This document shows, one piece after another, positions 2,276 to 30,959 of a stretch of 40,717 bases of DNA. The notes under the pieces were generated by a model. The model did not search any database and was not told where the DNA came from. It worked only from the letters and a program-made list of their open reading frames with translations. Position numbers and translations under genes: made by a program. Origin of the DNA: a virus; IMG/VR virus record IMGVR_UViG_3300045988_164919, positions 64,001 through 104,717 of that record; one strand, 5' to 3'. Positions within the stretch are counted from its first letter, which is position 1. Every line of letters begins with the position of its first letter.

Positions 2276-2791
2276 TTAATTAAGAGTATTTGCGTTGCCG
2301 CCATTAAGAATATCATAATGATCTTCTCCATATTGAATAGGTACAAGATTATTATTTACATCTACAATATAAGGCAACCATTTATTATTCTAAAAAATAG
2401 ATACAATTTGACCAACACAATTATGCTAAGTAATATAGTTAATTGCATCTACTAAAGAATTGAAAGAATTTTGTGCTGAAGAAGAAGTTTCTGTAGTTGT
2501 CCATTTACCATCGTAAATATATAATTTACCATCATAAATACACATTTCTCCATCTTCAGCAGTAGCTGGAAGTGCATCAACTGTGCCTAAAAATTCCATT
2601 ACATTATCAGGAAGATCAATTGTACCACTTTCGCCACCGATATATGGTAAATCATTCCATAAGGTTTTACCATCACCAATTTTCAGTTTATGAGTATCTA
2701 ATTCAAATCCAGGCTCGCCATCCTTAAGCAATAAGTTCTTTTCACGCCATGTAGTTGATCGACCTCTTTTGAACTTGATGATATCAGCCAT
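2276..2791 (-). CDS. Tail-fibre N-terminal-domain protein, about 171 aa, with one TAG read through.
   Basis: ORF 2426..2791 carries the motif FELDTHKLKIGDGKTLWNDLPYIGG (Mtd_N-like). It ends at TAG (2426-2428). The frame continues as protein-like sequence (HNCVGQIVSIFQNNKWLPYIVDVNNNLVPIQYGEDHYDILNGGNANTLN) to TAA at 2276-2278. SD is AAAGGAGAACACGAG-ATG. Confidence 0.55.
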
Positions 2792-3243: not shown

Positions 3244-3648
3244 ATATCATAATTGGCTATAGACCCTTAACTATCTATGATTTAAATACGCCACAATTAC
3301 CATGAAGCTTAGCGATACCAATTATTTTAAAAACAAGACTCATTGAAAAGCCAAAATAAAAACGCGGAATTTAGCTTACTAAACCAGCTAAAAAGAAAAA
3401 ACTTTTCAAAATATACTTTATTTTCTTTATTATACTTTTTCATCTATTATTTGATAAGTAAGTATTGTAGAGCCTTTGTAGGCAAAAGTTTGCTGAAAAT
3501 GAGTCTTAATATATGAGGGGCGGAAAGGAATACCTTGTTGTCTTTGCCCTCGACAAGGTTTAACCGTATTATACGAAAGTAGGGGTATGTTAATGTAAGA
3601 TTAGTTTAAACATCATCGCCACGGGAAGGCTCTTACTTGATAACGCAT

Positions 3649-3728
3649 AGGAGCAAGGGATTCGAACCCTGGACGTGTAGCTACAATTAGTTTTGGAGAC
3701 TAACCCAATCGACCACTCTGGCACTCCT
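3649..3728 (-). tRNA. tRNA with a Trp-type anticodon loop (CCA) and an unusually long variable region.
   Basis: T-arm CCAGG-GTTCGAATC-CCTTG. Anticodon stem TTAGT/ACTAA with loop CTCCAAA, which is identical to the E. coli tRNA-Trp loop. It is followed by 14 nt (TTGTAGCTACACGT). Acceptor AGGAGTG/TGCTCCT with G-U pairs. No CCA is encoded. Confidence 0.4.
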
Positions 3729-3736
3729 ACATATAA

Positions 3737-4581: not shown

Positions 4582-4655
4582 TGGTGGAGCCAGAGGGAAT
4601 CGCACCCTCGACTTTGAATTAAATTCAACGTTTTCCTACCATAAACTATGTCCCC
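4582..4655 (-). tRNA. tRNA with a candidate UUA anticodon (ochre/amber-suppressor-like), CCA encoded.
   Basis: GGGGACA-TA-GTTT-ATGGTAGG-AAAC-G-TTGAA/TTCAA arm, with central loop A-U-UUA-A-U if folded as a 4-5 bp stem and 7-nt loop. Variable GTC. T-arm GAGGG-TGCGATT-CCCTC. Acceptor 3' TGGCTCC-A-CCA. The palindromic loop makes the anticodon assignment uncertain. Confidence 0.4.
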
Positions 4656-7311: not shown

Positions 7312-7460
7312 TATTGGAATATGGTGCTCCCGTCGGGATTTGAACCCACATCTGGCGATTTGGCCCAAGATGTTAGATTTGAACTTACATCTTTCTTGCG
7401 CATAGACTATTTTGCCATTTAAACTAATCTTGGATAAGTCGCCGGCTCTGACCAATTGAG
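7312..7460 (-). tRNA. Interrupted tRNA. The host is tRNA-Ile(UAU)-like (loop CUUAU|AA) and carries a 73-nt nested tRNA-like insertion in the anticodon loop.
   Basis: GCTCTCG-TA-GCTC-AATTGGTCA-GAGC-C-GGCGA-CTTAT[insert]AA-TCGCC-AGATG-TGGG-TTCAAAT-CCCG-ACGGGAGC-A-CCA. The anticodon stem GGCGA/TCGCC pairs only across the insert. Confidence 0.45.
7351..7423 (-). other. Nested tRNA-like element (73 nt, with its own acceptor and CCA) inside the tRNA at 7312-7460.
   Basis: CCAAGAT-TA-GTTT-AAATGGCA-AAAT-...-GTAAG-TTCAAAT-CTAAC-ATCTTGG-G-CCA. It has a perfect 7-bp acceptor, a D-arm-like stem, a T-arm and G-CCA. There is no convincing anticodon arm. Precise excision of this unit leaves a perfect 7-nt host loop CUUAUAA. 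Confidence 0.4.
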
Positions 7461-7484
7461 CTACGAGAGCATTTATTTGATTTC

Positions 7485-7561: not shown

Positions 7562-7636
7562 TGGCTCCAAGGAAGGAATTCGAATCCTTATTTTCAGAAT
7601 TAACTCTGATGAATTATCCAGTTATTCGACCACGGA
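7562..7636 (-). tRNA. tRNA-like gene with an ambiguous UUAA-centred anticodon loop (6 or 8 nt). CCA encoded.
   Basis: T-arm AAGGA-TTCGAAT-TCCTT. Acceptor TCCGTGG/CCTTGGA (one mismatch), G, CCA. D-arm GAAT/ATTC. Anticodon region TCAGA-GTTAAT-TCTGA. Confidence 0.35.
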
Positions 7637-7712: not shown

Positions 7713-7741
7713 TTTATTCAAACAAGACTTATTTGGTTTGG

Positions 7742-7830
7742 TTCCGCTGGGTTTAACCGCTTCCCTACCTCCGCCATATAATGGTGGGGAGGGCAGGATT
7801 CGAACCTGCGTAGCATTCGCGACGGATTTA
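7742..7830 (-). tRNA. Permuted or fragmented tRNA locus. The T-arm, 3' acceptor and CCA segment lies upstream of an acceptor-5' plus D-arm segment.
   Basis: In minus-strand transcript order: ...TCCGT-CGCGAATGCTACG-CAGG-TTCGAAT-CCTG-CCTCCCC-A-CCA then a TTATAT linker then G-GCGGAGG-TA-GGG-AAGCGGTTAAA-CCC-A-GCGGA-AC... GCGGAGG pairs 6 of 7 with CCTCCCC. GCGGA pairs with the upstream TCCGT. Confidence 0.3.
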
Positions 7831-7869
7831 CTGTCCATTTTTTGCTGTTAAAGTCTTTATTTTCTTTAT

Positions 7870-7912
7870 TTTGTATATATATTATATATTAATTTTTATT
7901 AAATATCAAATT
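7870..7912 (-). promoter_or_regulatory. Conserved promoter motif copy.
   Basis: Plus strand ttgtatatatattatatattaatttttattaaatatcaaattt, immediately upstream of the 7742-7830 tRNA locus. Confidence 0.4.
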
Positions 7913-8600
7913 TATAAATTTTTTCTTGTGAATGATTATCAATAATTTCAATTAATTCATTAAGATAATTTTTATTTTCTGCAACTTTATCAATTTCAAT
8001 AGCTAAATTTAAAGCTGTATAACTAAAAGAGAGCTATTCTTTAATTCCAAGAATTTTTTTTATTTCTTCAGTAAATTGCTATAAATTACTTTTATTCAAA
8101 TAAAAATTTCCCAACAATAAAAATAAATTAGTTTTACCATTAATTAAAAAATAAATCTAATCTAAAATTTTCCAAAATTGTTTATCTATTTTTTTAAAAT
8201 TATTAAATAGCAATTTTAAACAATAATTTATATAACTAATATTTTGTTCAAAATTAAAATTATTAAAATCAGTGTATATTAACTAATTATCAAAATTATA
8301 ATTATTATTAATAATCTACAATAATAATTTATATCTATTAATAAAAATTTTATCTTGAATTTCCATAATTTTATATAATTCTATACCTTTATATTGTTTT
8401 AATATATCCTTATGTAAAATATATTTTTGACATAAATATTCATAAACAGATAAAATCTAAATATCCATATTATATTTTTGAAAATTTATATTCTTATAAT
8501 TACTTATACAAAATAAAATATTATCTTGTATAAGATACATATAATATATCTTACAGTTATATGTATTTTCGATAAATATTTTTAAATTATAATGGTTCAT
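7890..8600 (-). CDS. Asn/Ile/Lys/Tyr-rich hypothetical protein (about 236 aa) with at least 5 in-frame TAG codons. It is the last gene of the radical-SAM module.
   Basis: Hand translation of the minus strand gives continuous protein-like sequence: MNHYNLKIFIENTYNCKIYYMYLIQDNILFCISNYKNINFQKYNMDI-Q-ILSVYEYLCQKYILHKDILKQYKGIELYKIMEIQDKIF...WKILDLDLFLINGKTNLFLLLGNFYLNKSNLQQFTEEIKKILGIKEQLSFSYTALNLAIEIDKVAENKNYLNELIEIIDNHSQEKIYKFDI. It is interrupted only by TAG (for example at 8457-8459) and ends at TAA TAA (7890-7892). The ORF track shows this region as ORF-free. Confidence 0.5.
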
Positions 8601-9237
8601 TTCTACTTGTGCCACTACATGTGCCAGTACAGCTTGTACATAAACCTGAACAACTTCCTCCACACAATCCAGTACAATCGTTAGCACAATGTCTTGTACA
8701 GCTACCACTGCATCCACTACATCCTGTATAGCATCCACCTGAGCAAGAACCACTACATCCGCTACAGCTACCACTACAACTGCTTCGACATCCGCCTCTG
8801 CAAGTGTTTTGACAGCCTCCTTGGCAAGTATTCTTACAACTACCTAAACAAGTTCCCTAACATTGTACTCCACAACTTTCGCTACAACTGGTAGAACATA
8901 ATCCAGTGCAATAAGCTGAACATCCAGTATTCGAATCAGTTAATCCCATAGCTTGATAAGCTGTAATTTTTGCCTCTAATGTACTTAAATCATCATCTTT
9001 AATAACATTTATATTTTCATTCTGATTTTCAATATTTATTGCCGCCATAGGTTCTACCAGTTTTGTTATGTGTTCTTTTGAAATAACTTTTCCATTATCA
9101 GGCTAAGTAGTATAATCATAAGAAGTCCCTCCATATGAACTTACACTACCGGTATATTTACGACGTAAACATTCAGCCTTTATTTTTTTCTTTAATTCAT
9201 TGAATCTATCAGAAGTTATTGTCGTTCCTATTTTCAT
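8587..9237 (-). CDS. Cys-repeat precursor-like peptide (about 216 aa with two TAG codons) with a C-terminal (C-x3)n run of about 30 cysteines. An alternative internal start lies at 9048.
   Basis: ATG at 9237-9235 with SD AAAGGAGACAATGACAA-ATG, 28 nt after the radical SAM stop. Frame: MKIGTTITSDRFNELKKKIKAECLRRKYTGSVSSYGGTSYDYTT-Q(TAG 9103-9105)-PDNGKVISKEHITKLVEPMAAINIENQNENINVIKDDDLSTLEAKITAYQAMGLTDSNTGCSAYCTGLCSTSCSESCGVQC-Q(TAG 8857-8859)-GTCLGSCKNTCQGGCQNTCRGGCRSSCSGSCSGCSSGSCSGGCYTGCSGCSGSCTRHCANDCTGLCGGSCSGLCTSCTGTCSGTSRNEPL, then TAA at 8587-8589. Track ORF 8857..9048 is the middle fragment. Track ORF 8457..8774 is partly the wrong frame over the Cys repeats. Confidence 0.6.
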
Positions 9238-9265
9238 TTGTCATTGTCTCCTTTATTATATTATA

Positions 9266-10549
9266 TTCATCCTAAGAGATAATTTTTAATGCTTTTTCCA
9301 TATCTCCATTAAATTTAAATCGTTTATTCGAGTTTATTTTTTTTAAAATAGAATTTAAATAATATAAAGAAGCTAGAACTGTAGCATAATGCATATCACA
9401 AATATAAGTAACTCTTTTATTAACATTACCTGTTTCTTGATAATTATAAGCTGTACACCAAGAGCATCCTCCAGAAATTTCACAATCTAAACATTCTTGA
9501 GGAGATTGACTAATAACTGTTATTTCAGATAAATCTTTTAATCTATTGATGGTTAAATTATCTTGGCCTATTCCCTAATAAATATCTCCAATATAATATT
9601 CTGGCTGATTACTTATGCTATCTTCCATATAACGTAAACATGGATAATATTTACCTTTCCAATTTAAGGCTAACATACGACCATTCCCGCCACACCAATT
9701 ATCATTAGATAAATTTTTACTTCCATCATTAATATAAAAAATAGATAAATAAACTTTATCCCACAAATCATTATTTAATAAATAATCAGCAATTTTTTTT
9801 AACTAATAATATAATGTAGTGGCATGGTTAAGTTCCCAACCTTTTTCATACACACAATTTAGATTGATTTGACTATAACCATTGTTTATCATTTCTAAAA
9901 CAGCGTCATATAAATAATCTATATTAAATGGAGAGATAGTCATTTTACTCCCAATCCATTTATTATAATTATGGCTATAATGTAATGCGGCAGACAATGC
10001 TTTATCATAACTACCACTACCATCAGGGAAAACTCTACAAGCGTCATGTAATTTTTTATTTCCATCAATAGAAATTGATAAACTTAAATTTTCATTATTT
10101 TTTTTAATATACTCTTGTACTTTTTGTTCAAAATATAAAATACCATTAGAACTAATTGAAATTTTATATTTAGTAGCCCAGGGATGCCGCAATTCAATCA
10201 TTTTATTAATAAAATAATCAGTAATCTAATCAATTAATTCAATTTCTAAAAATGGCTCTCCACCTATAAATTCTATTATTACTCCTGGTATTTTATAAGA
10301 ATCAATATAACCAATAATTTTATTATCTCTGGTTAATATCTAATCAATCATCTGTTTAGCTGTTTCAAAAGATAATTTATGTTTACCTTTATGCCCTTGA
10401 TAACAATAAGTACAATTTAAACAACAATCATCTGTAACCTAAAATGTTAATGTAAATACAGACTAAGAATTTAAACAATCTTCAGGATATAAACGACCTA
10501 TAAAATCAGAAAATTCTTCAGGAATGTGGCTTATTTTAGGAAATAACAT
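9266..10549 (-). CDS. Radical SAM enzyme with a C-terminal SPASM domain (AnSME/peptide-maturase family), 427 aa, with 7 in-frame TAG codons.
   Basis: ATG at 10549-10547. The N-terminus has the CxxxCxxC radical SAM motif (VTDDCCLNCTYCYQG) and a GGEP motif (EFIGGEPF). The middle has SISIDGNKKLHDACRVFPDGSGSYDKAL (AnSME-like). The C-terminus has a SPASM Cys cluster (QECLDCEISGGCSWCTAYNYQ...YICDMHY). Track ORFs 9803..10201 and 9575..9766 are fragments. In-frame TAGs at 10463, 10439, 10340, 10247, 10226, 9803 and 9575 lie inside otherwise conserved sequence. Terminal stop is TGA at 9266-9268. Confidence 0.7.
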
Positions 10550-10817
10550 CAATAATTACCTCATTTGTATAAAAATCTAAATTCCAATTGCAAGTTTGAT
10601 TCCCAATTTCTGGTTTGATATAATTATTTTCTAATTCTAATTTAGCTAATTCATATTCAGCAAATAATTCTATATACTCATTATGATAATCATCAAAAGC
10701 TTTATTTCTAATATTTTGTCTAATTAAAAATTGACATAAATTTTTTCTAGCTTCAATTTCATAATTTAATTTCTAAAGATAATTTACTTCTTCTTGAGGA
10801 ATTATAATCTTCTTCAT
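10536..10817 (-). CDS. Small protein (93 aa, one TAG) immediately upstream of, and overlapping, the radical SAM gene.
   Basis: ATG at 10817-10815 with SD AGAAAGGAATAAAAAT-ATG. Protein is MKKIIIPQEEVNYL-Q-KLNYEIEARKNLCQFLIRQNIRNKAFDDYHNEYIELFAEYELAKLELENNYIKPEIGNQTCNWNLDFYTNEVIIDVIS with stop TAA. It overlaps the radical SAM start by 14 nt. Confidence 0.45.
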
Positions 10818-10899
10818 ATTTTTATTCCTTTCTTATATAAGAAATTTAATTATTTAATTAATATAATATGCCCTATATAAATAATTATAACATAAAAAT

Positions 10900-10926
10900 A
10901 AGAGAAAGTCAATTTGACTTTCTCTT
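10900..10926 (-). terminator. Terminator hairpin downstream of gene 10925..11233, followed by the promoter region of the radical-SAM module.
   Basis: aagagaaagtcaatttgactttctctt is a perfect 11-bp stem. On the minus strand it is followed by ATTTTTAT. Confidence 0.5.
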
Positions 10927-11233
10927 ATAAACCAAGCTTTTCAATTAAAGCTTTTAAATTTTCTTCTTCTTCTGGACTAATTTCTGTAGCCTTCTTTACA
11001 GACTGAATTGTTGCTCCATTTTCAAAATTAAGTTCATTATTACCAAAATCCATAGAACCAAAATTTTCTACAGGAGTTTTCGGACACGTTAGACTAATTG
11101 CAATCTGAATATATTGTCCATTTTCTTTAGCTCGCACATAATACTTTTTATCATAAGATCCGAGGAAATCTTCACCAAATGCTTCTGCAATTTTTTCTAC
11201 AACAGCATCTTTAGCAATACTACCTTTTGCCAT
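10925..11233 (-). CDS. Hypothetical protein, 102 aa.
   Basis: Track ORF. Protein is MAKGSIAKDAVVEKIAEAFGEDFLGSYDKKYYVRAKENGQYIQIAISLTCPKTPVENFGSMDFGNNELNFENGATIQSVKKATEISPEEEENLKALIEKLGL. Confidence 0.55.
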   Translation of the reverse strand: MAKGSIAKDAVVEKIAEAFGEDFLGSYDKKYYVRAKENGQYIQIAISLTCPKTPVENFGSMDFGNNELNFENGATIQSVKKATEISPEEEENLKALIEKLGL

Positions 11234-11352
11234 TATTCATTCTCCCTATCAAATAAAATTTCATCATAACAAGCTTCACAATAGTAAGCATTGTTTTCTT
11301 CATCATAAATTAAATCTTTTTTATCATAATACATATTACAATTATCACATAT

Positions 11353-12555
11353 CTAATAATTGTCTCCGCAACTACGGCATACATAACCATCATCATCATC
11401 TAATGATATTGCTTCAGGAATATAAATACGTCTACCGCATTCTCTACAGAAAGTAAAATCTTCTGTTTCTTCTGTACCATATTTAAGTTCACAATCAATA
11501 CAAAGCATCGTATCTGTTAAAACACAATCATTTTTACCACAAATACAACATTTTACATCATGTCCTATATTAACTTTAGTAGTGGTACGAGTTCTTGGAA
11601 GAATTAATTTATCTTGCGGAATACCTTCTTCATGCCAATAAGGTTCACTATAAGCAATACTAAACCAATAGTCATATACAGTAGAATGAAGAGGGTCATT
11701 ATAATGTAAAGGATTTTTTGGGTCAACAATAACCTTAATATCTGGGGTCATCATATACCCAGTAGGTAATAAACGAACTTCATTAGAAAAGATTTTATCA
11801 TTTATTGTAAATGTATTATATTTTTCATGACACCAATCGGTAAACCGATATCCTTGCCCGAAAAATGTTTCATACAGTTCAAGAGCAAAATCTTGTAATC
11901 CTTTACTTTCATAAGGATAATGCCGACCTGAAATAACCATAGTATCATCATCAGATACATGAAGAAGCATACGCCACTTCTTATCTGCCCATGGTACATC
12001 ATCTGGAAATCTAGGTAAAACCGCATCATGTTCACTCTTAATATAACATATAATCGTACAATTATCTGCCATATAAGATAAATTACCAGCACGATATTCT
12101 CCATCAAGAGCATGACATGACCGCCAATTATGCGTATTTTCACTTAAACTAAGATAATCCAATGGATGAACTGACATACAAAAATATCCACTAATTTTTG
12201 TATTTTGAATAAGCATACTAGCTTTATCTTGTATTTCAGTAAGAATTTCCTTATCTTCTACAAAATATTTAAATGCTTTAATTATTTTCATTCCTTTTGG
12301 AATGATAGTTCCATTATTCATTGAATAATCTTCGCTTAAAATATTATTATAAAAATTTTTTCTATTATTTTCAACAAAATCTCTTAATTCAAATAAGCCA
12401 TAACGCCAACGAATGTTGTCAATAAAACAATCTAATTCAGCTTTTTTATCATCTTCTGAAATAGACATTGTAATAGGTGCATGACTTTGATAAATTAATT
12501 TATTACCAGGAAGTCTGCTATAAAATTTGCATTTATTCTCTTCCCAATCATTCAT
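11353..12555 (-). CDS. Paralog A (400 aa) of a three-member family with a conserved HPLDY...SxN..W.SC...YRxG core and a C-terminal CxxC zinc-ribbon cluster.
   Basis: The long ORF has SVHPLDYLSLSENTHNWRSCHALDGEYRAGNLSYMADN, matching SIHPLDYMTMSDNANCWESCMNWTQGPGSYRAGTIEMMNSP in 15150..16808 and SIHPLDYLTMSDNACDWESCMNWYQGGDYRLGTVEMMNSP in 21796..23460. The C-terminus is CCICGKNDC...CIDC...CREC...CRSCG. A possible N-terminal extension to 12660 runs through the TAG at 12592-12594. Confidence 0.7.
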   Translation of the reverse strand: MNDWEENKCKFYSRLPGNKLIYQSHAPITMSISEDDKKAELDCFIDNIRWRYGLFELRDFVENNRKNFYNNILSEDYSMNNGTIIPKGMKIIKAFKYFVEDKEILTEIQDKASMLIQNTKISGYFCMSVHPLDYLSLSENTHNWRSCHALDGEYRAGNLSYMADNCTIICYIKSEHDAVLPRFPDDVPWADKKWRMLLHVSDDDTMVISGRHYPYESKGLQDFALELYETFFGQGYRFTDWCHEKYNTFTINDKIFSNEVRLLPTGYMMTPDIKVIVDPKNPLHYNDPLHSTVYDYWFSIAYSEPYWHEEGIPQDKLILPRTRTTTKVNIGHDVKCCICGKNDCVLTDTMLCIDCELKYGTEETEDFTFCRECGRRIYIPEAISLDDDDGYVCRSCGDNY

Positions 12556-12635
12556 TAATTTATCAATATTTAAAAGGTTAATGTCCAGTCCCTATGAATA
12601 GGCAATAACCTTCTTTACTTGTTCTTTAATTTCAT

Positions 12636-13634
12636 TTAAATTACAACAGGGACTCGACATTTATCACATACTCTTTCTTTCATATTATTTGAATAAAATA
12701 AATTATAGCACCTTTCACATTGATGAATATTAGGATCAAGTGCCAAACATTCAGGGCATACATGAACCTTTACTCCATCAATATCAAGAGGAAAATCTTC
12801 CCACTCATAATACAACTGATTACAAAAACTACAATTAATAAGTTTATCATCATCAAAATCATAAGGCATATGATATTTATTAGTCAATGTAATCCACTGA
12901 AGATATTCCTTGCTGGGGATAAATTTATATTTATCTGCATTTTCAATATCATCAAGCATTTTACATACTTTATTAATTGTATTATACAATGTTCTAATAT
13001 GCAAATCTTCATTTTGAGTATGTTCATGATGATAGCCAACTGATAAATTTACTCCGGCAATTTCCCATTCAGGCATAATAATACTAATATCTGTAAATGA
13101 TCCAATTGCTTGTCTAAAACCAAAACTTTCAACATAATCTATAAATGTAAAATTTTCACACTCATAGAAGACACAATCTCTTTCACCAGCTCTATCAAGC
13201 TCAATCATGTACTTAATATTTGGAGCTACTGGATGTGCTTCAACAAATATATGCGCACCATAGCCACCCATTTCTTCATCCGTTGTAAAAAGAACATAAG
13301 GTCTATACTTTTTGCGTAAAATCTGAATAATCGCAAAAACACCTGCTCTATCGTCTGCTCCAAGACCTTCCTTGCCTTTATAAACAGCTCTTTTCTCATT
13401 ATAAGTAAATTGACGAATTGGTTGTCTAAATACAGTATCTACATGTGCAATAAGCATAACAGGAATATTACCTTCAGCATATACATAATCTTCTGTAATC
13501 TCTACATTAGAATATTTATTAGATACAAAATCACCGAGAGCTTTCAAAAGACCTACTTCACTAATCTTGAATAACCCTTCCAAGAGCCCTCTACAATTTT
13601 CAGTAAAATCAGGAACTAAAACTTTTTTACCCAT
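12636..13634 (-). CDS. M42/M28-like zinc metallopeptidase domain fused to a C-terminal zinc ribbon, 332 aa.
   Basis: It has the motifs IAHVDTV (HxD), DDRAGV (DDRxG) and TTDEEMGGYGA (EE catalytic pair), then a C-terminal CSFCN...CPEC...CERC...CDKC cluster. Confidence 0.6.
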   Translation of the reverse strand: MGKKVLVPDFTENCRGLLEGLFKISEVGLLKALGDFVSNKYSNVEITEDYVYAEGNIPVMLIAHVDTVFRQPIRQFTYNEKRAVYKGKEGLGADDRAGVFAIIQILRKKYRPYVLFTTDEEMGGYGAHIFVEAHPVAPNIKYMIELDRAGERDCVFYECENFTFIDYVESFGFRQAIGSFTDISIIMPEWEIAGVNLSVGYHHEHTQNEDLHIRTLYNTINKVCKMLDDIENADKYKFIPSKEYLQWITLTNKYHMPYDFDDDKLINCSFCNQLYYEWEDFPLDIDGVKVHVCPECLALDPNIHQCERCYNLFYSNNMKERVCDKCRVPVVI

Positions 13635-15108: not shown

Positions 15109-15158
15109 TTTTATGTATATATTATATTATTTTATTTTAAAAATTTCAATTAAATCGC
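15109..15158 (-). promoter_or_regulatory. Conserved promoter motif copy (class B, TTGAAA-type) upstream of the moron gene.
   Basis: Minus strand CGATTTAATTGAAATTTTTAAAATAAAATAATATAATATATACATAAAA. Confidence 0.45.
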
Positions 15159-16808
15159 GATTGACATACTGCTATCATAAAAACGTTCAGGATAATGGGA
15201 AATCTTATAATTATGATTACTAATTATAGTAGAATAAGGGTCATTAGCAATTATTCTTTTAGCTTCTACGTTTAAATCATCTTCTTCAATTAAGAGAGCT
15301 GCTACACCATAGTAAGGACTACCATCCAATCGAATTGTTTTAGCTCTAATATTAGTATCTCCAAGATACTTTAAATATTCTTTATTAGCAAGACATTCAC
15401 TACAAATATAATGTTCATCATAATCAATATTAATAGTATCAATATTAATAGTTTGATTTCCAATATGTCCAACAAACATAAGAGTTAAATCATCATCAAA
15501 ATGGGCATCCTCACAACACATGCATCTATGTAAATCATTATAACAATCTTCACAAACCCATTCGCCGTCTACTTCAATTGCATCATTTGCATTAACTCGT
15601 TCACCACAGCAATAGCAATAAGTAGATGGATCACAGTCTTCACAAATCACCATTTCAGTGTCGTCAGACAAATAACCATCCTCGCCGCAGCACATACAAG
15701 TCATTAAACCAGAATAATTAATTGTAAATGTACGATATTTATTGTTTGGTGGATTAATTGAAAAAATTCCATAATTCTCTGTATTACCAAAATCATTATA
15801 CATTTCATTTGTTGCAAAATCCAACAGAAAATGATTATCCTTATCTTCTTTATCTTGCCAAGCTCCAATATAAGAGCAACTTTCCAAACTCTCTTGTGGC
15901 TTTTTTCTGTTATAACGCCATTCAGTTTTTTCTTCAACCAAATCAACAAGCCAATTTACAAGAGCTTTATCAAATGCAATATTGTAATAAGGATAAGATT
16001 TTACAGAACAAATAGCATTCGGATGGACAATGATTAATTCTCTCCAACTTTTGGAAGTCCATTCAATAGAAGTATTTTCTGGATAGTAAGGTTTAGTAGT
16101 AATATATGCTACAACAACTAATGGACTATTCATCATCTCAATAGTACCTGCACGATAGCTTCCTGGCCCTTGAGTCCAATTCATACAACTTTCCCAGCAA
16201 TTTGCATTATCGCTCATAGTCATATAATCCAAGGGATGAATAGACAGAGTAAATTTAATTTTAGATTTGCGTACTTCAGTAATACGTGAAACATGATTGC
16301 GAAAAATTTCAAAATCAGGCAAATCAAATTCTTTAGCCATTTTCTGAAGAACTTTCATTACCTTAGCTCCTTCTGGAACTTTAACTACTTTACCATCTTT
16401 ATTGTGATAAGCAAATCCTTTAACAACTCTATTAGTAAAAAGTTGATAAGCTTGAGTTAAATTATATATGGCATGTCTTGTTGCATAACTATTTTCAAAA
16501 TAAGTAGTATCAGATTCAAATAATCTACGAAGATTTGTAATAAAATTGATACCAGGATTAGTGCTATAGAGATACTCATTAACTTCTCTTACTTTTTTGT
16601 TATCTCCATCTTCAACCTGGATTTCCTTCTCCAGCATTAACTTTTCGCCAAAAATATTAAATAGAGTTTGTTTACTCTTATTCCATTCTCGAAGGATATA
16701 ATCAAGAGATGCTTTGAGTTTAATAGGGGAATTAACACCACCCCATGTTTCAATATATTCAGTAATATATTTCTTATCTTGTGCCGTTAATGCTTCATAA
16801 GGCGTCAT
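15150..16808 (-). CDS. Paralog B (552 aa) of the HPLDY/zinc-ribbon family.
   Basis: Uninterrupted ORF with SD AGGGAGTAAATAATC-ATG. It has the conserved core SIHPLDYMTMSDNANCWESCMNWTQGPGSYRAGTIEMMNSP and multiple C-terminal CxxC pairs (CMCCGEDG...CEDCD...CYCCGE...CEDCYNDLHRCMCCED...CSECL). Stop is TAA. Confidence 0.75.
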   Translation of the reverse strand: MTPYEALTAQDKKYITEYIETWGGVNSPIKLKASLDYILREWNKSKQTLFNIFGEKLMLEKEIQVEDGDNKKVREVNEYLYSTNPGINFITNLRRLFESDTTYFENSYATRHAIYNLTQAYQLFTNRVVKGFAYHNKDGKVVKVPEGAKVMKVLQKMAKEFDLPDFEIFRNHVSRITEVRKSKIKFTLSIHPLDYMTMSDNANCWESCMNWTQGPGSYRAGTIEMMNSPLVVVAYITTKPYYPENTSIEWTSKSWRELIIVHPNAICSVKSYPYYNIAFDKALVNWLVDLVEEKTEWRYNRKKPQESLESCSYIGAWQDKEDKDNHFLLDFATNEMYNDFGNTENYGIFSINPPNNKYRTFTINYSGLMTCMCCGEDGYLSDDTEMVICEDCDPSTYCYCCGERVNANDAIEVDGEWVCEDCYNDLHRCMCCEDAHFDDDLTLMFVGHIGNQTINIDTINIDYDEHYICSECLANKEYLKYLGDTNIRAKTIRLDGSPYYGVAALLIEEDDLNVEAKRIIANDPYSTIISNHNYKISHYPERFYDSSMSIAI

Positions 16809-21732: not shown

Positions 21733-21770
21733 CTATATATATTATATCAAATTTTTTATAAATTTTCGAG
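21733..21770 (-). promoter_or_regulatory. Conserved promoter motif copy (variant).
   Basis: Plus strand ctatatatattatatcaaattttttataaattttcgag, upstream of 21261..21716. Confidence 0.35.
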
Positions 21771-21795
21771 TATTCAATTTTGGCAAGAATTTAAA

Positions 21796-23460
21796 CTAAA
21801 CATAATCATCAGGGTAAATTGCCTTTAGCCGCACCTTGGCATTAGCAATTCTTTCAAGGGACAGAAATGGCTCCCATACCTTCTTATCTACCTTGTCAAC
21901 ATCAATATACTGAAAATCGCCCCACAAGTCTAGCTCCTTCGGCACATCATCGAAATCATAATCTTCATAACAATCATCACAAACATCAATAGGATTTCCA
22001 ACATCTCGACGATGCTTACCATTAGGAGTTTTTATCTCAAACATGTAGGGAAGAGTCTGTTTCTTGAAATCATAATCAAGCCATTTAGTTTCTCCGCAGC
22101 AGCTACAAACCTGGGTGCGGCCCTCTGCACACCAGCTGCAATAAGTTGCACCATCTTCACTACAAAACCAAGCGTCTTCACTATCAATCCAAGCACCGCA
22201 ATCATCACACTGGACTTTACCTTCACAGGTTGCACATACAACTTTATCACATTCTACAAATGCGTCTACATTTCCACTCGGGTCAGCTTCATAGCCTTTA
22301 CCGCAACACATACATTCAGCCACACCAGAATAGCAAACTTCTACTTCTTTTACTTCTGGATTAATATAAGCATAATGATTATCATAATAATCATTATACA
22401 TAGCTCCAGTCCTCATGCGGATATAAACCTGACCAAAATCAGTTTTATTGCTCTGATTCTGCCAAACCTCATACATTTTATCATCATAATGCCAGCCCAT
22501 ATTTTGTTCAGCCAACTGCTTAATCTTATTCAGCACATAATCACGCAGATAAATGTTATTATAAGGATACTGCTTAATTTCAGTAATGATATCCTTATTA
22601 ACAATATAGAGACACCGCCAACGCTTATTGCTCCAAGTTCTGGTATCACGGTCAATAGGATGATAAGGATGTTCAGATTCAACATATGCTTCAAGGATGA
22701 CAGGAGAATTCATCATTTCGACAGTACCAAGACGATAATCACCACCCTGATACCAATTCATGCAGCTCTCCCAGTCACAAGCATTATCACTCATAGTAAG
22801 ATAGTCAAGCGGATGAATAGACAGTACAATATCAGCATTAATCATACGGTCATTCAAAACACGCGAATGAAGAATACGAAACTGCTCAAATGCTTCTTTA
22901 TCCAGCTCAAACCAATCGACAATTTTAGCCATCATTCGCATCAGCTTCATATCACTTTTCAGTTCAAGTGGCTTCGAAGTATCTGCATGTGGACCTCGGC
23001 GAATAGTGACAGATTTGGTACCCCAATCAAACATATACAAATTTTTATTGGCTACAAGAGATTCAGTATCAAGGCAATGTTCAATCATACTACAACACAT
23101 AGCCCGTTCATCCTTGTCAAGAGTGGCATCCATCCAAGAATAATAAATATTAGTAATCTGCTCGTAAGAGTCAATGAATTTTTTAACGTTTGCTAATTCA
23201 GGATTATTATAAATTTCTTCATACATTGCATTGAATTTATCCATCAAATCATCCCCAGATGCCTGATAGGAAATATGATCTTCGACCATCAAATTATTAC
23301 CAAGCAACTCATACAGGTCAAGCTTTTCAGCAGCCCAAAACCGTAGAAGATGATTGATTTCATCTACTGTACAGTAATTATCAGAATGAAGGTACTCTTT
23401 AATATAATCATGCAGCAGATTCTTTTCTTCTTCTGGAATAAGAGTCCTCAAATCCGTCAT
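21796..23460 (-). CDS. Paralog C (554 aa) of the HPLDY/zinc-ribbon family.
   Basis: Uninterrupted ORF with the core SIHPLDYLTMSDNACDWESCMNWYQGGDYRLGTVEMMNSP and a C-terminal cluster of at least 8 CxxC pairs (CMCCGKG...CATCEG...CDDCG...CSWC...CSCCGE...CDDCYEDYD). The + strand ORFs 22012..23196 and 22146..22364 are antisense. Confidence 0.75.
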   Translation of the reverse strand: MTDLRTLIPEEEKNLLHDYIKEYLHSDNYCTVDEINHLLRFWAAEKLDLYELLGNNLMVEDHISYQASGDDLMDKFNAMYEEIYNNPELANVKKFIDSYEQITNIYYSWMDATLDKDERAMCCSMIEHCLDTESLVANKNLYMFDWGTKSVTIRRGPHADTSKPLELKSDMKLMRMMAKIVDWFELDKEAFEQFRILHSRVLNDRMINADIVLSIHPLDYLTMSDNACDWESCMNWYQGGDYRLGTVEMMNSPVILEAYVESEHPYHPIDRDTRTWSNKRWRCLYIVNKDIITEIKQYPYNNIYLRDYVLNKIKQLAEQNMGWHYDDKMYEVWQNQSNKTDFGQVYIRMRTGAMYNDYYDNHYAYINPEVKEVEVCYSGVAECMCCGKGYEADPSGNVDAFVECDKVVCATCEGKVQCDDCGAWIDSEDAWFCSEDGATYCSWCAEGRTQVCSCCGETKWLDYDFKKQTLPYMFEIKTPNGKHRRDVGNPIDVCDDCYEDYDFDDVPKELDLWGDFQYIDVDKVDKKVWEPFLSLERIANAKVRLKAIYPDDYV

Positions 23461-23529: not shown

Positions 23530-23548
23530 AGCCTTTAACAAGGCTCCT
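23527..23548 (-). terminator. Terminator hairpin downstream of the endonuclease-like gene.
   Basis: aggagccttt-aaca-aggctcct is a perfect 8-9 bp stem. On the minus strand it is followed by T-rich sequence. Confidence 0.5.
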
Positions 23549-24458
23549 ATAAAAGTAAATCATCTATTGTTAAATCTTTATATTTCGTATATGGTATTCT
23601 GATTAATGGGATATTATTATCTTTGCACCATTGAGTTTTTATATTATCTCTATATTGTAAATCATCTATAGACTCTCCCCAATTCTTCATAGGAGTATCT
23701 ACAGAATGTTGTATTCCATCATATTCAATTAAATATTTATTATCAACAAAAAAATCAAATCTTAATTTTTTATTAGTTTTAGGATTAATACAACTATCAA
23801 AACTTTTTTCTCTTATAAATGGTATATTATATTCTTTTAATATCTATTGTATTTTTAATTCTCCATGAGACATTTTCATACATCCACAAGATTGAGTATC
23901 ACCACTATTTAAATTAGTTCCTCTTACTGAAACTATATTACCACAATCGCATTGACAAATCCAATATTTAATTTTAGGTATTGATTTCTATGTATCTAAT
24001 TTTAAAACAGTTAATAACCCAAATCTTTTACCTACTAAATTAACAGTAGATGCTTCAGAAGTTCTCTCTTTCTAATAGCATCCACAAGATTTAGTATGTC
24101 CTGCATTTAAATGATTTGTATTTACTATTATCTTATTGCCGCATTTACATTGACATTCCCATAAAGCACTATTAGGCATACGTCGTAAAACAGTCAAATA
24201 TCCATAAACTTTTCCAGTTAAATCTTCAGACTAATTAGCTTCTCTTGTTTTTTCTCTTTGCAAACAACCACAAGACTATGTTGGTTTACTCCTATTTAAA
24301 GAAGCACTAGATATATCAAGTTCATTACCGCAATCACATTTGCAATGCCATAAAATACGATTATAGCTATTTTTTTTACCAGTATCATATTCTACTAATA
24401 ATCTACCAAACCTTTTTCCAGTTAAATCTTTCTTTGCTGGCATATAAAAATCCTTCAT
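23540..24458 (-). CDS. Free-standing homing-endonuclease-like protein (about 305 aa, at least 5 TAG codons) with four or five zinc-finger repeats and a C-terminal DUF559/Vsr-like PD-(D/E)XK nuclease domain.
   Basis: Track ORF 24276..24458 ([55 protein letters not shown]) ends at TAG. The frame continues through further TAGs with the same repeat unit (GKxFGxLTVL...W.C.C.CGN...V....L..G.T.SCGC) four more times. It ends with [72 protein letters not shown], an (R)FDF...IEYDG.QH motif of DUF559-type endonuclease domains. Confidence 0.55.
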
Positions 24459-29801: not shown

Positions 29802-30959
29802 TTAGTTCTCCTTTTTAAAATCAAAAATTATTTTTAATTCTTCTACTTTATCGAGCTGTTCCCAAGGGCTATTACATTCAATGCGACCAAAATGACCGAA
29901 GCAAGCATAGGGTAAATAGCGAGTATGCTTTAAATCAAATTTATGAATAATACTACGCGGTGCAAAATCAAATGTCTGATTAACTGCTTCAAGAATTTCA
30001 GCGATAGGTTTCTTTTCTGTGCCAAAACAATTAATATCAATAGATGCAGGTTCTGTCTGCCCAATAATATAAGCAACTTGAATCATACATTTATCACAAA
30101 CACCAGAAGCTACAAGATTTTTAGCTACATAACGTGCCATATAAGCACCAGATCTATCTACTTTAGAACTATCTTTACCGCTAAATGCTCCGCCACCATG
30201 TGGTGCATAACCACCATATGTATCTACAACGATTTTACGTCCTGTTAATCCGGTATCAGCCGCAGGTCCGCCCTTTACAAACTTACCTGTTGGGTTAATA
30301 TAAAATTTACAATCTTTTTTAATGGCATAACCTTGAAGGGCAATATTACAAATGTTCGTAATATCGGGCGTTATTTCCTTAATACTATACTTGTCTTTGT
30401 GTTGGGCCGATACGACAATTGTATCTACCCCTTCAAAGTTGCCATCATCATCGTATTGGACAGTTATCTGACATTTGCCGTCAGGTAACGCCCAAGGTAG
30501 CAAATCATTTTTATACTTACTAAACATAATGACCGAGATATTGTTAGCAAGCTGCTGGGCAATAGGCATATAATTTTCTGTTTCGTTAGTTGCATAACCA
30601 AACATCATGCCTTGATCTCCAGCACCATCTCTATCGACACCCGCAGCGATGTCAGGGGATTGATTTACTACATTAATAATATATGAACAAGTGTCGCAGT
30701 TAAATCCTGCTTCATCATTGTCATAACCAATAAACCTTAAAGTCTCTCTTGCAATTTCCTGATAAGGAATAGATTGTTCTGTTTTAGCTGTAATCTCTCC
30801 CATTATGTGGAAAAGACCTGGACTAATAGTACATTCACAAGCTACTCGGGCATCAGGATCAAGCTGGAGGACATAATCCAGAATAGCATCACTTACCTAA
30901 TCACAAACCTTATCAGGATGACCGGCAAAAACGCTCTCACTGGTAAATAAATAACTCAT
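29802..30959 (-). CDS. metK: S-adenosylmethionine synthetase MetK (about 385 aa) with one in-frame TAG at a conserved Gln position.
   Basis: Track ORF 29802..30803 has the MetK signatures GAGDQGMMFGYATNETENYMP, GGGAFSGKDSSKVDRSGAY and INPTGKFVKGGPAADTGLTGRKIVVDTYGG. Reading 5' of it through TAG (30897-30899) gives MSYLFTSESVFAGHPDKVCD-[TAG]-VSDAILDYVLQLDPDARVACECTISPGLFHIMGEITAK. This aligns with E. coli MetK [27 protein letters not shown], with TAG falling on the Q. SD is AAGGAGGAAATATTAT-ATG and the ATG is at 30959-30957. Confidence 0.8.

Follow-up and report, generated by a model that had tools for sequence, protein, structure and literature searches.

What is a radical S-adenosylmethionine (SAM) enzyme doing in a phage genome, next to a gene for a protein whose C-terminal part is a run of regularly spaced cysteines? 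The question is raised by a four-gene module on the minus strand, between positions 7899 and 10817, of a 40,717-nucleotide (nt) stretch of DNA from a gut phage (IMG/VR record IMGVR_UViG_3300045988_164919, positions 64,001 to 104,717; hereafter the window), which is near-identical to a 188-kb IMG/VR contig. A preliminary description, made from the letters of the window, had taken the module for a candidate phage-encoded ribosomally made and post-translationally modified peptide (RiPP) or metal-binding system. By its profile matches, the cassette belongs to the catalogued CXXX-repeat radical SAM maturation system (TIGR04115, TIGR04114/PF27846 and, weakly, TIGR04116). Our preferred reading, to which we give slightly better than an even chance, is that of a phage-borne CXXX cassette, with TAG read as glutamine, that would install thioether-type cross-links at many cysteines of a protein that is retained and probably tail-associated.

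Four overlapping genes with in-frame TAG codons

When TAG is read as a sense codon, the module resolves into four co-directional, overlapping genes, g1 to g4, with 16 in-frame TAGs between them and overlaps of 14 nt (g1/g2), 29 nt (g2/g3) and 14 nt (g3/g4). Standard-code calling of open reading frames (ORFs) over the same region returned fragments only (132, 63, 63 and 44 aa), so that the module is missed entirely, as the preliminary description had pointed out together with the tight packing and the dependence of every gene on TAG read-through. The first gene, g1 (10536-10817, minus strand), encodes an accessory protein of 93 aa and contains one TAG, and g2 (9209-10549, minus strand) encodes the radical SAM/SPASM enzyme, with 446 aa and seven TAGs. 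They are followed by the Cys-repeat gene g3 (8587-9237, minus strand; 216 aa, two TAGs) and by g4 (7899-8600, minus strand; six TAGs, 14% GC), an AT-rich ORF whose start is uncertain: the ATG at 8600 gives 233 aa and the following one 189 aa, in place of the 236 aa first proposed. The GC content of the module is 14-26%, compared with ~33% elsewhere in the window.

The length of the enzyme had to be revised. The final TAG of g2 aligns with Glu, Lys or Gln in homologues, which extend ~12 residues further, and the alignment with the enzyme of another phage (L008; comparison phages and loci are given as L-numbers) also runs through this position. Because the homologues read on past the final TAG, we take g2 to be 446 aa long and not 427 aa, a figure that fits termination at the last in-frame TAG. 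Therefore, g3 overlaps g2 by 29 nt rather than starting 28 nt downstream of it.

At the 5' boundary of the module, a terminator-like hairpin with a 14-bp stem and a T tail (10898-10928, minus strand) ends the upstream, TAG-free gene. It is overlapped by the best sigma-70-like promoter match of the region (10884-10912, minus strand; TTGACT, 17 nt, TATAAT, with a TG extension; 11 of 12 positions). The latter is a consensus match only, and promoter-like matches overall were not above chance (28 found, 30.5 expected). Of the shared upstream terminator and promoter that had been suggested, the hairpin thus stands, while the promoter is a best match among matches at chance level. A search of the module's own strand gave no internal terminator-like site, in agreement with the earlier observation.

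The enzyme matches the CXXX-repeat maturase family

The g2 protein matched the NCBIfam model TIGR04115, "radical SAM peptide maturase, CXXX-repeat target family", with 431.3 bits (cut-off 350, E = 3.7e-129) over profile positions 3-359 of 359, and its relative in L006 reached 433.8 bits. Homologues of g2 already carry this family name in public annotations. In an alignment of 120 enzyme homologues, the cysteines of the radical SAM CxxxCxxC motif (Cys42, Cys46 and Cys49) and those of the SPASM region (Cys286, 304, 353, 356, 362, 365 and 384) are invariant in 119-120 of the 120 sequences. Among Pfam families, Radical_SAM was matched above its cut-off and SPASM below it (16 vs 21.5 bits). The assignment of g2 to the radical SAM/SPASM peptide maturases, first made from its motifs, is therefore borne out.

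No other maturase model came close to its cut-off. The second-best family was PapB (162 bits, cut-off 340), and the scores for SCIFF (TIGR03974; 108 of 425 bits), CcpM (101 of 500), QhpD (84 of 453) and RumMC (56 of 720) were lower still. On the model of the anaerobic sulfatase-maturating enzyme (anSME, TIGR03942), g2 scored 64.7 bits against a cut-off of 349, which rules out an anaerobic sulfatase maturase; the housekeeping enzyme that the preliminary description had named as a possible confusion does not apply. The closest solved structure is that of the thioether-forming SCIFF maturase CteB (5WGG, E = 1e-20). Since the alignment begins at CteB residue 95, g2 lacks the N-terminal recognition domain of CteB.

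The search for enzyme homologues returned more than 3,700 sequences, and phage versions of the enzyme and of g3 are already present in PHROGs 1802 and 6085. Among the PADLOC defence models, g2 resembled pVip alone, and only through the generic radical SAM core (33 bits, residues 34-164), and g1, g3 and g4 had no match. As a separate observation, one 768-aa homologue of g2 (P0165) contains the intein domains Hint_2 and Intein_splicing together with a LAGLIDADG endonuclease.

A co-inherited set of three genes

Searching with profiles of the three proteins, we found g1, g2 and g3 together in 29 of 30 fetched loci, in the orders g1-g2-g3 or g3-x-g1-g2. The enzyme and target genes are adjacent or near-adjacent in 29 of the 30, so the pairing of a (C-x3)n peptide with a radical SAM gene, which had been proposed as something to look for in other phage contigs, does recur. 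Judged by this distribution, the conserved core of the cassette is three genes, g1, g2 and g3, rather than four. Some phages have two CXXX-target paralogues near a single enzyme gene, namely L006 (8001-8636 and 10632-11495) and L019.

The small protein g1 is 38% identical to the 97-aa ORF that precedes the enzyme gene in L006, and in L008 and L011 the two form one protein, with g1 at the N-terminal end; the L008 fusion aligns across the concatenated g1 and g2 sequences with 42% identity (E = 3e-138). The g1 family comprises 532 cluster representatives, nearly all of them 88-120 aa long. The model TIGR04116, "CXXX repeat peptide modification system protein", was matched by three of 95 family members (best E = 3e-4) and was the only family matched by more than one of them. 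The g1 protein itself did not match TIGR04116 at E ≤ 0.1; its size, position and co-inheritance fit. The predicted fold of g1, with a predicted local distance difference test score (pLDDT) of 96.5, consists of one strand, a long helical hairpin and then two strands. A fold search against the PDB gave no significant match for g1, the best hits being generic helical hairpins (E > 0.4). A RiPP recognition element (RRE) of the PqqD type was considered for g1 and ruled out by this search, as the model is not a PqqD-like winged helix, and a PqqD-like RRE was found neither in g2 nor in g1.

The fourth gene had been counted as a member of the system. It has no counterpart in L006 and had no family match in Pfam, NCBIfam, PHROGs or PADLOC; its product was matched only in the syntenic phages L015-L017, where the match covers the C-terminal 175 aa of a longer protein at 33-36% identity. 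By these comparisons, g4 is lineage-specific cargo and not part of the core. Most loci do have a helix-rich ORF of ~170-190 aa after the target gene, for which a PHROGs search returned nothing. We nevertheless rejected a conserved fourth component, as these ORFs are not detectably homologous to each other or to g4 by BLASTP, phmmer and hhalign (best pair, 20.7% probability).

The Cys-repeat target

The g3 protein contains 28 cysteines, 27 of which lie within the last 111 residues, and the 26 spacings between these consist of 23 of four residues and three of three. The earlier estimate of about 30 cysteines was thus slightly high. When the tail was shuffled 100,000 times, 23 spacings of four were never reached. 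A tandem DNA repeat as the source of the periodicity was ruled out, as the g3 DNA is not a tandem repeat. Compared with L002, a 97%-identical phage, g3 shows 21 synonymous and five non-synonymous differences, and the frame is therefore under purifying selection; an alternative frame of 347 codons across the repeat (8939-7899) is a by-product of the repeat. The protein scored 21 bits on TIGR04114 (cut-off 20), a marginal match, and its homologues are annotated with the Pfam family PF27846 (tSAM_targ_Cxxx_rpt).

Homologues of g3 number 632 and keep the Cys columns, 15 of which are invariant in the family alignment. These data bear on the most skeptical explanation, that the Cys frame is non-coding or that g2 is a housekeeping anSME unrelated to the neighboring ORF. 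The conserved columns and the excess of synonymous changes, the score of g2 above the TIGR04115 cut-off and far below that of anSME, and the co-inheritance of enzyme and target make such an artefact almost inconceivable. The Cys-repeat ORF is a real, conserved gene, as first supposed, and a catalogued target of the enzyme.

The 120 listed homologues of g3 share one plan, an N-terminal domain (median 105 residues) followed by the Cys repeat. In the window, the N-terminal domain corresponds to residues 1-105 (8923-9237, minus strand; one TAG) and is the proposed docking domain, while the repeat corresponds to residues 106-207 (8617-8922, minus strand; 27 Cys with Ser, Thr and Gly in between; one TAG) and is the proposed substrate region. 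The domain carries the motifs LK..VKAE..RR.Y.GSV..YGG..YDY...P and EH..K...P.NAIN and is followed by a near-fixed block, TGC.ASCTGLCST.C, and then by 13-41 cysteines. Across the family, 85% of 2,881 Cys-Cys spacings are four residues, and the repeat unit has the consensus C-[ST]-G-[STG]. Acidic residues are scarce (median Asp+Glu, 4.5% of the repeat). In the AlphaFold model of g3, the N-terminal domain has three main helices at a pLDDT of 80-90, and the repeat falls below 50 and is unstructured in the monomer. The first 105 residues are thus predicted to form a conserved, folded domain. Its matches in BFVD were only unannotated members of the same family from uncultured siphovirus-like and podovirus-like gut viruses.

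The layout of g3 invites the reading of a classical phage RiPP, in which the 105 residues would be a leader that is removed, and the cross-linked core would be set free when the cell lyses and act as a bioactive peptide, for instance a bacteriocin or a signal. A recognition region at the N-terminus and a modified region at the C-terminus are RiPP-like, g2 lies in the SPASM peptide-maturase radiation with PapB, SCIFF, CcpM and QhpD as its next-best matches, and phage lysis would free the core so that an exporter would be unnecessary. However, this "leader" is far longer than typical ones, is confidently folded and is more conserved than most of the core, and neither a double-Gly motif nor another obvious cleavage motif was found at the junction of domain and repeat. 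We therefore regard release of a cleaved peptide as unlikely, and the gene neighborhood described below points the same way.

The composition of the repeat also suits a second alternative, a protein that binds metal or Fe-S clusters through its cysteines, either metallothionein-like or as a metal-coordinating ladder in an oligomeric fiber. Cysteine makes up 24% of the tail with small residues in between, and some phage fibers bind metals along their axis. The enzyme would then perform another modification (epimerization, methylation, or oxidation of the Cys-to-dehydroalanine or formylglycine type) or act only as a chaperone; SPASM enzymes catalyze several chemistries, and the acidic acceptors used by PapB (PMC12373016) are scarce in the repeat. 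Against this stand the co-inheritance of the target with a dedicated SPASM enzyme and a helper, from which we argue that the system exists to modify the repeat covalently, the fact that the closest characterized relatives of g2 are all Cys-thioether formers, and the low anSME score of g2. Metal binding as the function of the repeat thus seems improbable to us.

TAG is read as glutamine

Two lines of comparison show that TAG encodes glutamine in the module, since near-identical phages exchange TAG and CAG and since TAG columns hold Gln in homologues. The TGT-TAG-GGA of the window and L001 corresponds to TGT-CAG-GGA in L002 and L003, and a second exchange, in the opposite direction, is found in g2. 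Gln dominates three of the seven g2 TAG columns, with 118, 84 and 62 of 120 aligned enzyme homologues (background Gln, 3.8%).

TAG codons are unevenly distributed over the window, with 18 per 1000 codons in the module and 2.8 in the rest (Fisher p = 8.5e-7). Between 40 kb and 11 kb almost no gene contains a TAG, and from the module leftward to the end of the window no gene is without one; the module is part of the TAG-containing section of the window. TAA still serves as the stop codon of most window genes, and the recoded codon is TAG. The locus is a clean example of TAG-to-Gln recoding, with near-identical phages that swap TAG and CAG and with TAG use concentrated in one part of the genome.

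The preliminary description had expected the module to be expressed only once a suppressor is active, that is, late. The need for TAG read-through stands. As for the suppressor, the window lacks a detectable suppressor tRNA with a CUA anticodon, and the only suppressor-like tRNA in it has a UUA anticodon of the ochre-suppressor type (4585-4655, minus strand; Rfam tRNA model, 48.5 bits), belongs to the tRNA array that lies downstream of the module and was missed by ARAGORN with default settings. This tRNA is the sole candidate decoder of TAG in the window and would act by wobble, a link to the module that we infer. Late expression of TAG-containing genes occurs in recoded phages, and it is plausible by analogy that the module is expressed late together with the other TAG-containing genes. 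In several unrelated phages with the cassette (L004, L005, L009 and L025), the enzyme ORF is likewise intact only if TAG is taken as sense; one of them, L009, had been assigned by binning to a Mollicutes metagenome-assembled genome.

Tail and baseplate genes surround the cassette in several lineages

We surveyed 89 neighboring proteins from 11 standard-code loci, each of a different lineage, and list the 25 most often matched families. The commonest PHROGs are tail collar fiber, baseplate hub, virion structural protein, tail fiber, tail protein, endolysin and the reverse transcriptase of diversity-generating retroelements (DGRs), and the commonest Pfam families include Collagen, Phage_tail_C, Baseplate_J, Phage_fiber_2, Gp80 and H_lectin. 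In the P2-like L013, the cassette is preceded by genes for the tape measure, gpD-like (Phage_GPD), gpU, gpW, Baseplate J and gpI proteins and followed by fiber-like genes and a DGR reverse transcriptase. In L010, a prophage of Gemmiger formicilis DFI.6.10 (NZ_JANGCG010000001, about positions 402,500-422,900), the genes before it encode tape measure, baseplate and fiber-like proteins, and fiber-like proteins follow. Phage_tail_C proteins flank it on both sides in L008. In L014 it has the tape-measure region on one side and NlpC/P60 and H-lectin genes on the other, and in L012 it lies between large structural genes and a holin-amidase pair. The DGR reverse transcriptase lies within a few kb of the cassette in L013 (12616-13713) and in one further surveyed locus.

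This company has consequences for the RiPP reading. No protease, leader peptidase or exporter, and neither a C39/ABC exporter nor an immunity gene, was among the 25 most often matched families of the survey, and the embedding among tail-fiber and baseplate genes is consistent across lineages. The short leader, dedicated protease and export of a RiPP in the strict sense are thus not what the neighbors and the folded N-terminal region show. Of the RiPP maturation first proposed, the pairing of a SPASM enzyme with a Cys-rich target is real, and a cleaved leader with an exported core is doubtful.

The lineage of the window itself differs. Its cassette lies behind genes for an M28-type peptidase, a phosphoesterase and other non-structural proteins and is followed by the tRNA array and then by two genes with the major tropism determinant N-terminal domain (Mtd_N; 1039-2253 and 2279-2791, minus strand; two TAGs each), which are of the receptor-binding or tail-fiber type. 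A third alternative takes its start here, namely that the cassette is non-virion accessory cargo, a host-takeover or anti-defense factor in the usual cargo slot. The non-structural genes upstream agree with this, as does the distinct base composition of the module, and the interval between tail-fiber and lysis genes is a classic site for unrelated cargo genes. On the other hand, fiber or baseplate genes occur on both sides of the cassette in several unrelated tail types (L008, L010, L013 and L014), and the module matched no known defense family beyond the generic radical SAM core. We consider cargo of this kind quite unlikely, more so than either of the two alternatives above.

The family is large, with its enzyme homologues, 632 targets and 532 helper clusters. 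GenBank phage records hardly contain it: a single one of 50,697 carries both the enzyme and the target gene, and this one is an uncultured fecal contig. A pattern scan of 185,579 species genomes gave two loci, a count that depends on the pattern and is not a measure of rarity.

A possible mechanism and its weak points

We propose the following scheme. The g1 protein would take the position that the RRE has in related maturases and dock the N-terminal domain of g3. The g2 enzyme would then work along the repeat and form many C-S (thioether-type) cross-links from the Cys thiols, as PapB and CteB do, with one SAM consumed per cross-link. In an i to i+4 register, each Cys would be linked to the next repeat unit. 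The product would stay a protein, neither cut nor exported, in the form of a reduction-proof rod of cross-linked cysteines on a helical domain, and it is probably a tail- or tail-fiber-associated component of the virion in phages of gut anaerobes. For phages of strict anaerobes, thioethers would offer stability like that of disulfides without oxygen. We favor a retained, tail-linked protein because the N-terminal domain is large, folded and conserved, because no cleavage or export genes were found among the 25 listed neighbor families, and because of the fiber and baseplate company.

Several points weigh against this scheme, and the virion role is its weakest step. The N-terminal domain had no match in the PDB fold search and so no fold tie to tail proteins, we found neither a virion proteome nor a cultured phage with the cassette, and in the window lineage the genes upstream of the cassette are not structural ones. 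In addition, unrelated cargo is known to gather in the interval between fiber and lysis genes. As for the chemistry, thioether formation would be carried over by analogy from relatives at 25-30% identity, and the rarity of Asp and Glu in the repeat does not fit a PapB-type reaction. The docking role of g1 is a guess from its position and its fusion to the enzyme, and g1 is not an RRE of the PqqD type. Moreover, a rare protease or transporter could have escaped a listing of 25 families.

A broader claim would be that the CXXX cassette is no natural-product pathway but a route, widespread among phages of anaerobes, to a covalently cross-linked virion part. The radical SAM enzyme would act in the host cytoplasm, which is free of oxygen, and turn the repeat of a tail- or fiber-associated protein into a thioether ladder that replaces disulfides in the anoxic gut, with g1 as a new recognition partner in place of the RRE. 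We put this forward tentatively, as it is well short of an even chance. If true, it would to our knowledge be the first case of a viral structural protein matured by a radical SAM enzyme, and radical SAM chemistry would join the ways in which virions are built. A cross-linked tail component would also explain why the cassette is found in the company of receptor-binding genes and of the DGRs that mutate such genes. If a released peptide is the right answer after all, it would be a phage-made poly-thioether RiPP of unusual size. In either case direct tests are within reach, as the system consists of three small genes and as a standard-code prophage copy is present in the isolate Gemmiger formicilis DFI.6.10.

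Other features of the window

The window contains several unusual tRNA genes and tRNA-like elements, all on the minus strand. The tRNA-Trp(CCA) gene at 7322-7470 has a 73-nt insert in its anticodon loop, with a T-arm-like hairpin (…GTTCAAATC…); 73 nt is short for a group I intron. At 7740-7850, the 3' half of a tRNA ending in CCACCA is directly followed by a segment like a 5' half, and the arrangement could be a permuted tRNA, a split tRNA or a remnant. A tRNA-like gene at 7562-7636 has a 6-nt anticodon loop, and an 86-nt 'tRNA-Trp' at 3645-3730 has a long variable arm and a tRNA-Sec score of 38.8 bits, which stays under the threshold of that model.

The window also encodes an S-adenosylmethionine synthetase, MetK (29805-30959, minus strand), with all three Pfam domains and a match to PHROG 1569 (E = 3.9e-119). 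This phage MetK could supply SAM to g2, or it could serve another purpose. Three large paralogous proteins are encoded on the minus strand at 11236-12660 (475 aa), 15153-16808 (552 aa) and 21745-23460 (572 aa). They share the motif S[IV]HPLDY[LM][ST][LM]S[DE]N…W.SC and C-terminal clusters of zinc-ribbon-like CxxC pairs, and only the 475-aa copy matches a PHROG (18912, of unknown function). Finally, a gene at 23538-24458 (minus strand) with 27% GC and six in-frame TAGs lies amid an otherwise TAG-free block. It encodes repeated Cys pairs and a weakly DUF2726 nuclease-like C-terminus, and it may be an insertion of the mobile endonuclease type.

Comparison with known systems

The preliminary description held that the cassette was not a described system. 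This does not hold, because the cassette belongs, by its matches to TIGR04115, to TIGR04114 and, at the family level and weakly, to TIGR04116, and by the presence of its phage versions in two PHROGs, to a system that is catalogued although uncharacterized. The CXXX-repeat system was reportedly defined in silico by Haft and Basu in J Bacteriol in 2011. The window copy agrees with it in that the enzyme and the target repeat score above the curated cut-offs and in that the same three-gene set is present. It differs in being phage-borne, in using in-frame TAG as Gln, and in having a g1 that is too divergent for TIGR04116. The enzyme-target pair has had curated models for years, yet our literature search found no experimental or descriptive paper on the chemistry or role of the CXXX-repeat system; TIGR04115 is mentioned once, in an unrelated paper on the pig gut, and a search on ranthipeptides and bacteriophage returned genome-mining papers only. 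New here are the association with tail-fiber and baseplate genes, the fusions of g1 to the enzyme and the folded N-terminal domain of the target, none of which we found in the searched literature, as well as the co-inheritance in 29 of 30 loci, the result that the helper is not an RRE of the PqqD type and the lineage-specific nature of g4.

Among cultured phages, the sole matches to g2 were SPASM-type radical SAM proteins of jumbo phages (Salmonella SPN3US-like and Erwinia Ea35-70-like). They are only ~25% identical to g2, and a tblastn search found no CXXX target in those genomes.

Chemical parallels are offered by PapB, CteB and QhpD. PapB, which matures the ranthipeptide freyrasin from PapA, forms rings in C-x3-Asp motifs with Asp or Glu as the acceptor, and its recognition is thought to be driven mainly by the leader's binding to the RRE (PMC12373016). 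Like g2, it is a SPASM enzyme, and it forms several small thioether rings in a repeated C-x3-acceptor pattern, in the i to i+4 register that the g3 repeat also has. Unlike in PapA, residue i+4 in g3 is another Cys, acidic residues are rare and the N-terminal region is a 105-aa domain, and the helper is not RRE-like. CteB is likewise a thioether-forming SPASM enzyme that acts on a Cys-rich peptide. It has an N-terminal RRE-type domain (residues 1-94) that is absent from g2, and the SCIFF substrate is a peptide of ~45 aa with six cysteines, compared with the 216 aa and 27 repeat cysteines of g3. QhpD is a SPASM enzyme that forms Cys thioethers in a subunit of quinohemoprotein amine dehydrogenase, and the modified protein is kept as a functional subunit and not released. 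QhpD differs from g2 in its substrate and context, and its model is matched by g2 far below the cut-off. It nonetheless resembles the scheme proposed here in that the protein, once modified, is retained.

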